IMG/VR virus record: IMGVR_UViG_3300038345_000076
Coordinates: 41,851 to 105,850 of that record
DNA length: 64,000 nt
Source: a virus
Lineage: Duplodnaviria; Caudoviricetes
Direction: 5' to 3' (one strand)
Part shown: in pieces, positions 38,673 to 58,377 of the stretch
Layout of the letters: every line of letters begins with the position of its first letter
Position numbering within the stretch: position 1 is the stretch's first letter
Notes under the pieces: generated by a model
Seen by the model: the letters and a program-made list of their open reading frames with translations, nothing else
The model's database searches: none
Told to the model about the DNA's origin: nothing
Made by a program: the position numbers and the translations under genes

Positions 38673-41600
38673 ATGAGCGGTTGGACGATATACAGCAAAC
38701 AGGGAACACCCAAATACAAGGTTGAAAATCTGGAGTTCCGTGACATATGGATGGGCGAGGAGTTCGTGACGGTAAGTATCGTCTCCCCCACCCCGATAGA
38801 GCTTCAAATAGGCGACTATCTGACGTACAGGGGAGCGACATATACCATCTATTCGCTTCCTGCCGCTTTGAAACAGGCAAGGAGCAGCAGTTACGGCGAG
38901 GCTTTCAAGTACGATAACGTGAAGCTGTCTGCGCGTAGCACGGAGCTTACGGACATCCGATTCCTTGATATTGTTCTCGGAGACAACAACCTTCATTACA
39001 CGTCGCTTCCCACGTTCTCCGTCTATTGCGAGACCGTTGACGACTTGGTTGACCGCTTGCAGGCCAACACTGACAGGAACGCTATACAGTGGTTTTTCAT
39101 CACACCAAACCATTCGAGGACGATGCAGCGATACACTGGTGCTGCTGCTGTCACGGCGGATGCGCTATGGCATCAGTATTACGATGATGCGGACGATTTG
39201 TTTGAGGGCAACACGGAAATAAACGTCTCCGTTGACAAGAAAAGCCTCTGGGAAGGTCTTGCCTTCATCAAGAACAACTTCGGACTAAACTTCATAACCC
39301 GTGACAGGTCATGTATCATCGGTGCTCCTGGTGTTATCGCAAACCATATCTTCCAGTACGGGAAGGGAAACGGTCTGTATCAGATAGAGCGTGTTGCAGA
39401 TCAAGACCAGCAGATCGTTACGAAGCTCTTTGCCTATGGCAGTGACAAGAACCTTCCATTACGCTACTATGCCACCATCGGAGACGACATGCCGAACAAC
39501 ATGGCTGTCAATGTCCTCATGCTGCCAGGGTTTCCTCAGTATGCACTGAACCAGTTGTGCCGTACCACATACTATACCGACGGTACGGGCAAAAGGCATA
39601 CGAAGGTGCAGATACGCAAGACACCTTCCGCAGGCTATTCCGACATTATGGATATACTCGGCGAGTACACTATCGGCTTTTCTGATAACAAGCTGCGTCC
39701 GTATATCACGTCAGGCAATGTAGGTACTCTCGGAGTGAAAGAGGGAGACATCCACTTCACGGAAGAGAACGACGACAATGGCTTGAAGGAGGTGTACCCA
39801 TCCATCGAGGGCATGACGGCAGGAGACGCAGGTGTAAGCGGTCTTCCTGCCGACGAGCGTCTTGACGAAATAAAGGCTTGTGATGTCATCGACGACAACG
39901 GTGTCTTTGAAGAGGGTGCAGAGATACCTAACTTCAACATATACCTGAAGCCTCTCGGCTTTGACTTGAAGCAGGCTTACGATGCCAACGGAGGTACGAT
40001 GGTGATACACCTCAACGACGGCTACTGCGGAGGACGCGACTTCTCCGTAAAGAGTGTCGAATGGGAGGAGGCGAACAGCAGGTGGAAACTAAACGTAGAG
40101 CGTCATCACGACGAATCCCTTGACTTGTACTTTCCCTACTCCTGGGGCAAGTCCACTGGCGGCTCGTCCTCTGCCAACGAAGCGTATCAGATACGCACTG
40201 GAGACCATTTCGTCTTGACAGAGATAGAGATAAGCGATACGTCGTATATATGGGCTGCGAGCGTCAAGGCGTTGCGCAAGGCTATCACATGGCTTCTTAA
40301 CAACGACTACACGCGCTTCACTTATCTCCCGAAGGTTGACGAGATATTCATGGCACGTCAGCACGACTCATCTACGCCAGGGACTTCCCTGCATGACACA
40401 TTGAAGGCTGGAGACGTTATGAACTTCGAGGACAGTGACCTGGATATCGCAGGTAATGTGTTTATTGATACCCTTACGATCAAGGAAAACGGCAACAACG
40501 GCATACCCACATACGACGTAGTGTTACGCAACGACAAGCAGGTAGGCACGATGCAGCGAATACAGAACCAGTTGAACTCGCTTTCCTCGTTTGTCTCAGG
40601 AGGCGGTGGAGGTCTGAGCATAGCGCAGATACGTCAGTTGATCCAGACATACGGTGCCGACTTGTTTCTCTCCAAACTAAACGACGATACGGCACAGGGG
40701 ACACTGACTCTGATGAAAAGACTTGTAGTTGGGTTACAAGCAACGTTTAACAAAGGGTTTGAATCCAAAGACTATTCAAAACTTGCAGAAGGTGCCGACT
40801 TCGGAGATTTTGTTCAAGGGCTTGTAGGAGGTGACGGTGCAAGGATTGACAAGAATGGTAACATGGAGGCGACAAGCCTCTTTCTTCGTTCTGAACTCAT
40901 AGCACCGAAGCTGACATACAACCATGTAGATGTCCGTGTAGGTGATGAATGGCAGACAAACGGAGGAGGTGAGATAGCCTATGTTGACGGGTTCTTTACA
41001 GACCCAGAGGATAATATAGAAGGCGGTTATATCCATCTGCGTTTACAAGAAGATGACGAAGGAAATATAGTAGAGTTCGGAACGCTTAAACTGAACGATT
41101 TCTGTAAGGGAATCTTTCATAACATGGATGGCGGTTATAACGACACGCAGACCACAGATGACGGTAAGGGAGGCAGGACATTCTCAGGCTTCTTTACTTC
41201 GTTCTTCAATATCATAGAGGTTAGCGGAGACCATTACGAGACTCTGAAATACAAGTTACGTCCTACCATCACTTCTGGAGGGTTTGACTATTGGATGCGT
41301 GACGATGGTACGGCAAGTGGTATGCGTGGAGGTTTCCATCCGTGCGCACATATGACCTTTGCACAGTACTCAAACCCACAAGACACGACACGTCAGAATT
41401 GTCAGTACCGCACTACGACATATATGCGTATGCTGGCTAACATGACTGGCTGGGATGAAGGACTTGCCAACGTAGCATTCCAGGTAGGCAACACACCTTT
41501 GATAGCAAGTGCCTTTGGAAGTACAGACCCAAGCGGAAGGGCTGCTAATGCTGGTCGCTACTCCATGTGGATTAACGGCGACATCTTCTTTTCTGGCACA

Positions 41601-48482: not shown

Positions 48483-49712
48483 TTACCCCGGTTTTTCGGG
48501 CAATTTTTCATCCGATATTTCGTCTCCAGTATCACATGTTGCTACTTTAAAAGCCTTCTTGACATCGTTGGCAATCATAGTTTTGGCAATATGTGCATAC
48601 CTTTGCGTCTGCTCTATCTTGGTATGGCCAGCCAATTTTGATACGGTCGTTATCGGCACTCCTTTTGCTATGAGTAGGGTGCAGAAGGTATGGCGCAGCG
48701 TATGGAAGGTGATATGTCTGGAGTCGGCTACCCCAATACGCTTGATCAGATCCTTCAGAGTCCTGTTGGCAGAGGCGTTATTACCTATATGCGTCAGTCT
48801 TTCTATGCTGCCGCGCCGCTCGATCAACGCGAGTGCCTTTCCACCGAATAGAGAATATAGCGGTAACCTTACAACCACTCCAGATGACTTGCTTGTTTTC
48901 TTCGGCTGTATGATAAGCCAGGTCTTTCCATGCTCCTTCAGCAGCATGTCAGAGGTGAGGGTTGTCAGATCATGATATCGCAGTCCGGTATAGATGGCCA
49001 TCAACGCACAGTCTCGGATTCTTGCCTCGCGTTTCTTTAATTTAAGATGCTCCAGCTTTCGCACCTCATCGAATGTCAACGACTCTTCTCTGCTCTTTAT
49101 CTTAGGAATAGGGAAATGCAGGAACGGGTCATCGTCGACGCATATGAGCTTTCTGGCGATAGCCTCGTTGATGATACACCTTATGCCTTTTAGTCTGCCT
49201 GATATAGTGCTTTGTGACATCTTCTGGGATTTCTGCCAATCCACGAACCTGTTGAGCCAGTCTATATCTATCTCTTCTAATGTAAGGTCTTTGTGAAACC
49301 TGTCCACTATCTTGATAAGTGTGTTATAGGAATCCTTTGTGTGCTTTCCTCTTGAAGATGAATGTTCATTGATAGAAGTCACGAAATCACGGAATGTAGC
49401 AGAAGATGAAATATTATGTCTGACAGCGTTCTTAAGCATGGCAAGCGTGGGATTCTTTCCCCTCTGTATAAATCCGAACTCGATGCGTTGTATCTTGATT
49501 AACTCATCAAATATATACTGGTTGAGTTGCTTTGCAAGAGGATGATTGACAATATAATGACCGTCCCACTGATACGGATATAGGTAAACTTTTGTTGAAA
49601 AGTATATTCTCTTTCCGTTAAGCAGGCACTCCACTTGCACAAGGCTTCTTCCGTCTAAGTTTAACTTCCCTTTTCTGTTGAATACAAGCCTGTATCTTAC
49701 TTTATCAAACAT
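48483..49712 (-). CDS. Tyrosine recombinase (Bacteroidetes Arm-bind/SAM/catalytic type), probable shufflon invertase
   Basis: TGLRYHDL (R), KTS (K), HTLRH (HxxR), AGH, TQRY (Y). Confidence 0.9.
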   Translation of the reverse strand: MFDKVRYRLVFNRKGKLNLDGRSLVQVECLLNGKRIYFSTKVYLYPYQWDGHYIVNHPLAKQLNQYIFDELIKIQRIEFGFIQRGKNPTLAMLKNAVRHNISSSATFRDFVTSINEHSSSRGKHTKDSYNTLIKIVDRFHKDLTLEEIDIDWLNRFVDWQKSQKMSQSTISGRLKGIRCIINEAIARKLICVDDDPFLHFPIPKIKSREESLTFDEVRKLEHLKLKKREARIRDCALMAIYTGLRYHDLTTLTSDMLLKEHGKTWLIIQPKKTSKSSGVVVRLPLYSLFGGKALALIERRGSIERLTHIGNNASANRTLKDLIKRIGVADSRHITFHTLRHTFCTLLIAKGVPITTVSKLAGHTKIEQTQRYAHIAKTMIANDVKKAFKVATCDTGDEISDEKLPEKPG

Positions 49713-52015: not shown

Positions 52016-52227
52016 AGAAAAAAGTTGTCTTCATATAATTAATAGTTTAGTATTTTCTGATTTTTAGACGTAACTGAAGTGGGCAAGCGTGCCTGCGCTC
52101 GTTTTTTTTAGTTTCATCATGGTATCAAATTTTTCATATCTTGAAGATTTTTAGTTATTTAACATTAGCACCCCATCCGTGAGGACATGGTGCTATTCTG
52201 GGGAATATATTTATAAATAATAATCAT

Positions 52228-52356
52228 AAAGAAATCCCCCGTCATAAATAAGTATCTCACCACATTATCTACGGACTTCCCACAGAGAGAAGCGGGGGAT
52301 TATGCCCTTTTTTCTCCCTGTGGGATAAATGTCTATTGTCCGCAATGTGGTGAGAT
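52228..52356 (-). ncRNA. Candidate structured ncRNA (long stem plus possible pseudoknot)
   Basis: Nested pairings 52254-66/52344-56, 52271-76/52338-43, 52278-90/52313-25; loop 52293-300 is complementary to 52234-41. Confidence 0.6.
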
Positions 52357-52361
52357 GGGTG

Positions 52362-52393
52362 CAAAGGTACTAATAAAAGTTGAACAAACCAAA
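52362..52393 (-). promoter_or_regulatory. Bacteroidetes promoter driving the ncRNA candidate
   Basis: TTTG-N20-TACCTTTG. Confidence 0.65.
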
Positions 52394-52402
52394 ATTTGCA
52401 CA

Positions 52403-52630
52403 ATGAAAGTAGTTGAGTTATTAAAAATAGGTGCTGAAACGTTAAAAATGATGTCACAGAATGGCATCTTTATTGACGATTGGAAATATGTGGAAGCCTA
52501 TGAACATTTTCTGAGGATGCGCGAATTGGGCGTAAAGTATAATGTTGCCATCAAGGAAGCGGCTAATGATCTTCACGTCACCAAGCGTACACTGCAACGA
52601 GCGTTCAAGCGTCTTTCAAAGGAGTGTTAA
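52403..52630 (+). CDS. Small HTH DNA-binding protein
   Basis: AIKEAANDLHVTKRTLQRAFKRL helix-turn-helix. Confidence 0.7.
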   Translation: MKVVELLKIGAETLKMMSQNGIFIDDWKYVEAYEHFLRMRELGVKYNVAIKEAANDLHVTKRTLQRAFKRLSKEC

Positions 52631-52693
52631 ATGGTGTCACGGATTGGCACTTGAAAGGCGTGTTTATCTATTGTTATCTGTTTTATAACTGGT

Positions 52694-57817: not shown

Positions 57818-58377
57818 TTACTTGTCAACAAACTCCCATTTATAGCCGCCAGCAGATTTGATATAATATCCCTTTTCTTTGTTTATTATCTGTTTGGCAG
57901 CACAATTCCTTATATTCTCGTGTCTTATGCTGGTTTCCCGACTTGCTTCTCTTATTGTTTTATACTCCTTTATAAATTTTCCATCAAGAGAAAATTGGGC
58001 AACAGGTCTTAATCTTGGGTTTCTGCTAACCCACGTTCCATATTGCATATTATAATCTCTATCACACCACTCAAGATTATCTACACGATTATTGTCTTTA
58101 TTTTCATCCTTGTGGTTTATTTCTGGCAAATTATTTGGATTTGGAATAAAAGCCTTTGCCACAAGACGATGTACTTTAGTTGTTTTTCCTCTATCATTTC
58201 TTCGCAGTCTAACATTGCAATATCCACATGCATCGTGAATATTATTATGTGAGAACAATCGTCAAGGATTTCAACATCTTTTCTGACACCAACGTGTAAA
58301 AACGATTTGATTCTTCCGAGGTTTGATACTTGGTATCTCCCCTCATACCCTTCAATATCTTTCCAAACTTCTTCCAT
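57818..58377 (-). pseudogene. NUMOD4-HNH-NUMOD1 homing endonuclease split by a frameshift near 58260
   Basis: EVWKDIEGYEGRYQVSNLGRIKS in one frame; VHRLVAKAF...INHKDENKDNN..NLEWC in another. Confidence 0.75.

Follow-up and report, generated by a model that had tools for sequence, protein, structure and literature searches.

A putative family of structured small RNAs encoded by phages beside a divergent helix-turn-helix gene

Introduction

The locus examined here raises a simple question: what is made from a stretch of nested inverted repeats that lies between the lysis genes of a phage and a small helix-turn-helix (HTH) gene? We analysed the right-hand 64 kb of a complete IMG/VR phage record of 105.85 kb, hereafter the window, for which a first-pass annotation had proposed a promoter-driven, pseudoknotted non-coding RNA of about 130 nt at this place. 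The comparison of homologues supports this proposal, the stems covarying very strongly and the pseudoknot significantly, and it indicates that the hairpin with its pseudoknot belongs to a strongly covarying, previously undescribed family of predicted ncRNAs of ~135 nt. That a real structured RNA is encoded on the minus strand appears very probable to us; its role is less certain, and we weigh the possible answers along with the evidence.

Results

The locus and the predicted RNA

The RNA element is single-copy in the whole record. On its left, the plus strand carries a holin-like gene, an endolysin gene and a DUF6808 gene, and its right neighbour, 44 nt from the RNA start, is a 75-aa HTH gene heading a series of small genes without assigned function. 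The unit sits where the end of a late or structural operon meets the start of a variable cargo operon. No open reading frame overlapping the element exceeds 62 aa and none is kept in homologues, in agreement with the first-pass view that no credible ORF lies there. ARAGORN found no tRNA or tmRNA gene in the window, and blastn of the window locus against GenBank phages gave no match.

The predicted minus-strand unit is a single copy with its own Bacteroidetes sigma-A promoter. The promoter proposed by the first-pass annotation is indeed found as a pattern match, TTTG-N20-TACCTTTG (Table 1), which conforms to the consensus of a -7 box TAnnTTTG with a -33 TTTG ~19-21 nt upstream, in a window where the pattern is not rare (6 matches, 3.0 expected). 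The hairpin begins at most 5 bases past the -7 box.

Table 1. Features of the RNA element and its surroundings, in window coordinates
Feature	Position	Strand	Description
Core non-coding RNA	52228-52356	minus	~130 nt, predicted to begin at the first P1 base and to finish with the U-rich tract
P1	52344-52356 with 52254-52266	minus	13 bp, 100% complementary
P2	52338-52343 with 52271-52276	minus	6 bp, one G.U
P3	52312-52325 with 52278-52291	minus	14 bp, one G.U; central and most variable stem
Apical loop	52292-52311	minus	20 nt; purine run and conserved GGGCAUA, then X1
X1	52293-52301	minus	AAUCCCCCG; in the apical loop, partner of X2
X2	52233-52241	minus	CGGGGGAUU; 12 nt past P1, 9 bp with X1, 100% complementary, then UUCUUU
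U-rich tract	52228-52234	minus	after X2
X3	52200-52205	minus	second C-run, UUCCCC; could pair with X2 if transcription passes the U-tract
Downstream hairpin	52166-52195	minus	from sequence and fold; possible second or bidirectional terminator, membership in the RNA uncertain
Promoter of the RNA	52362-52393	minus	Bacteroidetes-type, pattern match TTTG-N20-TACCTTTG
-33 box	52390-52393	minus	TTTG
-7 box	52362-52369	minus	TACCTTTG
HTH gene	52403-52630	plus	divergent, 75 aa, phrog_17790

The fold also corresponds closely to the one first proposed. The three-segment stem lies where it had been placed, with helices of 13, 6 and 14 bp rather than 13, 6 and 13; its two mismatches are both G.U on the minus strand, one in P2 and one in P3; the loop does pair with the tail, over 9 bp without mismatch, and UUCUUU follows the tail partner. 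The covariance model described below matches the window at 52222-52358 with 142.8 bits. CGGGGG occurs four times on both strands of the window, two of these being the X1/X2 partners. The downstream hairpin, ~30 nt past X3, has G.U pairs on the minus strand; two homologous loci (L002 and L004) have analogous downstream hairpins followed by a T-run, and this hairpin may be a terminator shared by the lysis operon and a longer form of the RNA.

A family of homologues with covarying stems

We gathered 72 distinct homologues from IMG/VR, from Prevotella and Bacteroidaceae genomes and from Hankyphage p00. The first came from loci of IMG/VR and of the species genomes that encode relatives of the 75-aa protein: at 22 of those loci the 200 nt upstream of the HTH gene fold singly into the P1-P2-P3 architecture, with stem sequences largely unrelated from one locus to the other. 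A covariance model seeded on the window alone recovered these homologues, and the rebuilt model separated true matches (E <= 1e-7) from reverse-strand echoes (E >= 1e-4). IMG/VR was also scanned independently of the protein, by means of a DNA pattern built solely on the loop and the tail, and at least 49 true members are found among the 80 loci listed, mostly from human-gut samples.

The stems covary throughout. With the caveat that the stem alignments were fitted to the model and hold phylogenetically related sequences, so that numbers and shuffle significance overstate independence, 91.6% of the cells are paired in the alignment of 22 sequences and 92.0% in that of 56, double changes occur at all 33 pairs in both (700 double-change cells in the larger one), and the covariation score of the 56 sequences is 0.920, against 0.212 after shuffling (0 of 500 shuffles reach it) and 0.07-0.13 with slid partners. 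Yet the independent single-sequence folds agree with the stem structure, the same P1-P2-P3 hairpin being obtained in 56 homologues. The absence of covariation among homologues, which the first-pass annotation had named as evidence against an RNA, is therefore not what we observe. Among the individual helices of the same 56 sequences, P1 is paired at 97.5% in its outer 10 pairs and 91.7% in its inner 3, with double changes at every pair, and P3 at 93.1%, with double changes at 14 of 14 pairs; P2 is the weakest helix (75.8%), partly from poor alignment there. The asymmetric internal loops are conserved among homologues, as are, family-wide, the GGG(Y)AU and the C-run of the apical loop.

The -7 box is conserved along with the hairpin. 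An exact TAnnTTTG box lies directly 5' of the element in 70 of the 72 distinct homologues; its TA and TTTG never change, whereas the middle two bases do, and a -33-like element was found in 47 of these 70. A coding reading of the tail, prompted by an AUG-AAA-GUC start in many rumen members, was rejected: L041, L004, L025 and every member of the human-gut subgroup lack this start, and the reading frames that follow it bear no relation to one another.

P3 and P2 are in some members swapped as a block (L086 compared with L070, L096, L097 and L105; L094 compared with L078 and L076): both arms differ completely (57-64% identity), P1 is identical, and the tail and the 250 nt upstream are 95-100% and 93-98% identical, respectively. 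The P3 allele of L086 recurs on a different backbone, in L063. Separately, a subgroup (L065, L085, L089, L058, L055, L109, L093, L082, L123 and L107) carries an extra small GC-rich hairpin (GCGC ... GCGC) in the 5' internal loop between P1/P2 and P3.

The pseudoknot, the U-tract and a second partner for X2

RNAalifold applied to a plain MAFFT alignment recovered the loop-to-tail helix only. For the pseudoknot we also give the results of an unfitted alignment, for which each sequence was cut from X1 to X2 and aligned by MAFFT without structure. Double changes are found at 7 of the 12 pseudoknot pairs (next to the C-run, for example, U:A becomes G:C, and further out A:U becomes G:C or G:C becomes A:U), and the covariation score is 0.229, against 0.135 after shuffling (reached in 0 of 500) and at most 0.085 with slid partners. 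Cognate loop-tail duplexes are also more stable than non-cognate ones (means of -20.3 and -16.4 kcal/mol, permutation p = 5e-5). A loop that pairs with a 3' segment and shows compensatory changes is what is expected of an H-type pseudoknot. One homologue, L016, is devoid of X2.

The G/C-rich X1:X2 helix, of 8-10 bp across members, directly precedes the U-tract, which follows X2 immediately (at least 5 U in 10 nt) in 70 of the 72 homologues. The signals of an intrinsic terminator are thus present, a G/C-rich long-range helix directly before a U-tract, and termination at this point is predicted. As in ordinary intrinsic terminators, the G/C-rich helix adjoins a U-run, here of 5-8 U, but the 5' arm of the helix sits in the apical loop of an upstream 33-bp hairpin, which makes the helix a long-range pseudoknot. 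We know of no citable precedent for a pseudoknot acting as an intrinsic terminator, and this may be a rare case of it.

X2 has a second possible partner, since an X3-like stretch lies downstream: in 67 of 68 distinct homologues the sequence after the U-tract can pair with X2 at -9 kcal/mol or better, mostly through a C-run 8-20 nt downstream. The flanks of X2:X3 do not covary significantly (p = 0.26). Members of the Hankyphage-type subgroup present X3 as part of the loop of a small hairpin that itself covaries and after which a further U-rich run is often seen.

Which strand, and RNA or DNA

How is the strand assigned? The minus strand of the window folds at -56.1 kcal/mol (z = -6.4; none of 200 shuffles folds as well) and the plus strand at -53.4 kcal/mol (z = -5.6), that is, almost as well, so fold energy alone cannot choose between them. 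The G.U pairs of the stem, to which the first-pass annotation had pointed, proved a weak and not robust argument: a strand-neutral count over the stems of 56 sequences gives 118 G.U against 56 A.C, with 15 other mismatches, and in the rumen subgroup the count is 40 against 33. The excess of A.C over the other mismatches hints at a need for folding in the complementary strand too. We assign the RNA to the minus strand because of the -7 box, which is conserved, the U-tract and the abundance of G.U in the pseudoknot, for which the unfitted alignment gives 50 G.U against 8 A.C on the minus strand, 29 of the G.U coming from one column.

The alternative is that the plus-strand RNA is the functional one, as an intercistronic or leader structure of the HTH mRNA acting in processing, stability or attenuation through X3':X2' and X2':X1', the minus promoter being secondary. 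The plus strand does fold better in 16 of the 22 rumen members, whose stems have no G.U bias; and in the Hankyphage-type members rightward transcripts must cross the element, as there is no room for a separate HTH promoter, and the placing of X3' within a small hairpin loop, together with the A-run that precedes X2', gives the geometry of a classical H-type pseudoknot. But the -7 box and the U-tract, each seen in 70 of 72 homologues, can be understood on the minus strand only, and the plus strand has no U-tract of its own; the pseudoknot count favours the minus strand, as does the overall 2:1 ratio of G.U to A.C in the stems, and in 37 of 56 homologues the minus strand is the better folder. 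We consider this alternative improbable.

Nor do the nested inverted repeats seem to act as DNA, be it as a cruciform, a single-stranded DNA hairpin, a set of protein sites such as operators for the HTH protein, or a recombination or replication signal. It is true that the stems are nearly pure Watson-Crick (1762 of 1951 in the 56 sequences) and tolerate A.C, that a DNA-binding protein is encoded alongside, and that the P3 arms change together in blocks, as template switching or recombination would produce. However, complementarity is maintained at 33 positions plus a 10-bp long-range pairing, far above the needs of half-sites, the asymmetric internal loops are conserved, and the pseudoknot is enriched in G.U, all of which leave a DNA-level function very improbable. 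The window has no tRNA, and an attP, ori or pac site was rejected: Hankyphage replicates by transposition and packages starting at its left end (PMC12135933), and the p00 element lies 2.1 kb from the right end.

Carriers of the RNA

Few Bacteroides prophages are as widespread in humans as Hankyphage. As the window locus itself has no match among GenBank phages, the link to Hankyphage was made only through a human-gut homologue, which by blastn matches 23 phage records of GenBank; 19 of these are from Bacteroides phages, Hankyphage p00 and its jmh relatives among them. In p00 the covariance model places the element at BK010646.1 40543-40686, minus strand (68.2 bits); it fills the gap between a DUF4376 gene that ends at 40529 and a Mor-like gene that starts at 40709, the counterpart of which is annotated 'Mor transcription activator domain' in sister phages. 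Among 151 sampled species genomes of the Bacteroidaceae, the family of the Prevotella hosts, 11 (~7%) carry one or two copies. The RNA is thus common to Hankyphage, its relatives and unrelated rumen phages, yet it is unannotated, and we found no mention of it in the Hankyphage papers examined.

The gene on the 3' side of the RNA varies: it belongs to a lysis cassette in the window, is glycosyltransferase-like or of unknown function elsewhere, and in Hankyphage is the end of the cassette of the diversity-generating retroelement (DGR). The lysis genes, towards which the first-pass annotation had the RNA converge, are an incidental neighbour and do not belong to the unit, and we dropped the lysis link, the gene on the DUF6808 side differing between homologues; a search by the DUF6808 neighbour returned one distant locus only.

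The divergent HTH gene

On the other side the partner is nearly constant. As the first-pass annotation had it, the RNA diverges from an HTH gene, a homologue of which is nearly always present beside it: in 36 of the 39 distinct elements found without using the protein the HTH homologue is divergent and its ATG lies at a distance of 21-47 nt from where the RNA starts, and it is present at all 13 bacterial-genome loci, where start offsets reach ~100 nt if the first listed ATG is taken. In most Hankyphage-type members the distance is just 21-26 nt. At two loci (L115 and L066) the RNA and its promoter are kept and the HTH gene is replaced by others. The conserved genetic partner of the predicted RNA is, then, a divergent Mor-like HTH gene of 75-80 aa, missing at few loci.

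The Mor label is weak. GenBank relatives of the protein are annotated 'Mor transcription activator domain', and Pfam PF08765 (Mor/C) scores 15.8-17.6 bits (E 0.004-0.014), below its cut-off of 24.9 and over the C-terminal HTH part only. The AF2 model (pLDDT 84.6) has four helices and finds no Foldseek match in the PDB at E <= 0.001; the best match below significance is the I-beta HTH of Mu transposase (probability 0.93), and Mor itself (1rr7) ranks 11th (0.10). A sequence search of the PDB with an HTH profile gave nothing below E = 0.09. With Mor/C of phage Mu the protein shares its small size, a C-terminal HTH and the Mor-like annotation in Bacteroides phages, and differs by its sub-threshold Pfam score and its lack of a significant fold match to 1rr7. 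We know of no RNA partner for Mu Mor. Hankyphage is itself a Mu-like transposable phage (PMC12135933).

In the rumen subgroup, to which the window belongs, a separate TTTGCAC box precedes the ATG of the HTH gene by 4-6 nt and is kept in most rumen homologues, which suggests that the HTH mRNA is leaderless there; the RNA and HTH promoters are then mirror-image neighbours (GTGCAAA ... TTTGCAC). In the window, a -7-like box AAAATTTG followed by CAC (52391-52405) ends 4 nt before the HTH ATG. Two 21-nt direct repeats, 86% identical, one inside the HTH gene (52446-52466) and one just past its stop (52629-52649), are candidate sites for the HTH protein.

For part of the human-gut subgroup, for example L067, L096, L102, L074 and relatives, the 5' arm of P1, within the first 24 nt of the RNA, and HTH codons 1-7 can form an imperfect duplex of 11-16 bp (-14 to -16 kcal/mol); in other words, the 3' arm of P1 resembles the HTH start. 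The permutation p value of this pairing is 0.0002, but as the signal comes from human-gut members that are related to each other, and rumen members show it weakly or not at all, we regard it as a lead at most. In L021 (1390-1470) there is a truncated copy of the element in opposite orientation, with a P3-like hairpin with a C-rich loop, a U-run and then CGGGGAUUUU; it lies directly upstream of the HTH gene in the same sense, and resembles an ordinary terminator of the upstream operon.

Discussion

What could the RNA do? The most likely role, which we put forward tentatively, is that of a promoter-proximal antisense gate acting in cis on the Mor-like HTH operon. Transcription would start at the first base of the P1-P2-P3 hairpin, and the X1:X2 helix with the U-tract would act as intrinsic terminator. 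The product would then measure ~130-135 nt, and a longer one would extend past X3 or past the next hairpin. The RNA and its promoter would together gate the HTH operon. The promoter would stand back-to-back with the HTH start, and in Hankyphage-type members the RNA -33 region lies inside the HTH coding sequence, so that the two transcription units would compete. The RNA would be fully complementary to the sole stretch by which rightward late transcription enters the HTH gene, and could thus pair with read-through transcripts and stop or destabilise them. Indeed, rightward transcripts of Hankyphage-type members must cross the element as its perfect complement. Finally, the tolerance of both A.C and G.U in the stems would fit a need for the sense transcript to fold, as in pairs of the CopA/CopT type.

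Cis-antisense control RNAs are well known from plasmids and phages, among them CopA/CopT of R1, RNAI/RNAII of ColE1 and sar of P22. Like these, the present RNA would be a short, highly structured, constitutively promoted RNA opposite a regulator leader, both strands being able to form mirror stem-loops. It differs from them in that it does not overlap the start codon, that its sense transcript is predicted from the layout, and that its apical loop is engaged in an intramolecular pseudoknot and so not free for kissing. Furthermore, the genome layout requires sense/RNA overlap in the Hankyphage-type members only; a leaderless HTH mRNA in rumen members would not overlap the RNA, so antisense pairing is not universal there.

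Against the antisense gate stand the loci L115 and L066, where the apparent RNA and promoter are found without the HTH gene. The block exchange of P3 would not be needed in a purely cis element either, and hints at a specificity function. These observations, with the promoter and terminator signals of an independent transcription unit, the conserved loop GGG(Y)AU that the helices do not account for, the exchange of P3 between backbones 93-98% identical elsewhere, and a probable leaderless HTH mRNA beyond the reach of the RNA in rumen members, lead one to consider an RNA acting in trans. It could bind, titrate or scaffold a protein (the HTH protein is the obvious candidate, a host RNA polymerase or host defence protein being others) or be an sRNA that base-pairs through its C-rich loop, with P3 as the specificity element. 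We nevertheless hold a trans-acting RNA to be rather unlikely. No target was found in the window, where CGGGGG occurs nowhere else of note; the match between the P1 5' arm and the complement of HTH codons 2-6 is seen in part of the human-gut subgroup only, where relatedness confounds it; the fold of the HTH protein is that of DNA-binding HTHs in general; and the C-rich loop is taken up by the pseudoknot.

One may go further and suppose that the RNA and the HTH protein form a portable two-part module, in which P3 sets the specificity and an RNA-based immunity or recognition picks the phage whose cargo or late operon is switched on, with a terminator of a new kind made by a long-range pseudoknot. 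We regard this extension as doubtful. If true, the module would be common to the 43-kb transposable Hankyphage, to rumen phages of 60-75 kb and to this 106-kb phage.

A riboswitch, leader or antitermination RNA was rejected as there is no co-oriented gene downstream. The antitoxin role suggested in the first-pass annotation has no support, as no conserved toxin candidate adjoins the RNA.

Resemblance to the templates of reverse transcriptases (RTs) deserves separate mention. The ncRNA units of UG27 systems are ~135-167 nt long, are found in Bacteroidota phages, and have a pseudoknot and a main hairpin with an asymmetric internal loop and a sequence-diverse central stem (10.64898/2026.09.22.753630). 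The present element is like them in size, carriers, pseudoknot and long hairpin with asymmetric internal loop and diverse central stem, and a DGR RT gene lies ~500 nt away in Hankyphage-type phages. A UG27-like or retron msr-msd-like template, of which the variable central hairpin would be converted to cDNA by an RT acting in cis or in trans, might be imagined on this account. But no RT (PF00078) was detected in the 105.85-kb record, with positive controls; the phage also lacks the sORF and bORF, and instead of a tandem array there is a single copy with its own promoter and U-tract beside an HTH gene. The motif AUC-N7-UANAG was found on neither strand in any of the 72 homologues. Retron msr-msd RNAs have an adjacent co-oriented RT, whereas the only RT at hand, that of the p00 DGR, is on the opposite strand, with the RNA pointing away from it. 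Of all the readings weighed here this one is the least probable.

Known RNA families gave no better answer. No Rfam 15 family matches the window at its gathering threshold, and none appears on the strand of the element up to E = 10; a weak BTnc231 match (22.6 bits, gathering threshold 80.4) on the plus strand downstream (52022-52196) reflects the terminator-like hairpin at 52166-52195. The likeness to the BTnc sRNAs of Bacteroides lies in the Bacteroidetes-type promoter and the small size. Literature searches returned no description of this RNA, a comparison made without the supplement of the 10,000-csRNA catalogue (PMC10690425). We thus rate the element as a new predicted family of phage-encoded structured small RNA, with a seemingly unusual terminator and a fixed protein partner of the Mor-like regulator type. 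It offers a well-defined structure with very clean covariation, and its function is directly testable, since a Hankyphage lysogen is available for which there are both genetic tools and strand-specific RNA-seq.

Two further genes of the window may be recorded. A tyrosine recombinase with an arm-binding domain (48483-49712) scores as a phage integrase, and an HNH endonuclease gene (phrog_59, E = 3e-31; 57818-58258, minus strand) lies amid minus-strand genes of unknown function downstream of the HTH operon.
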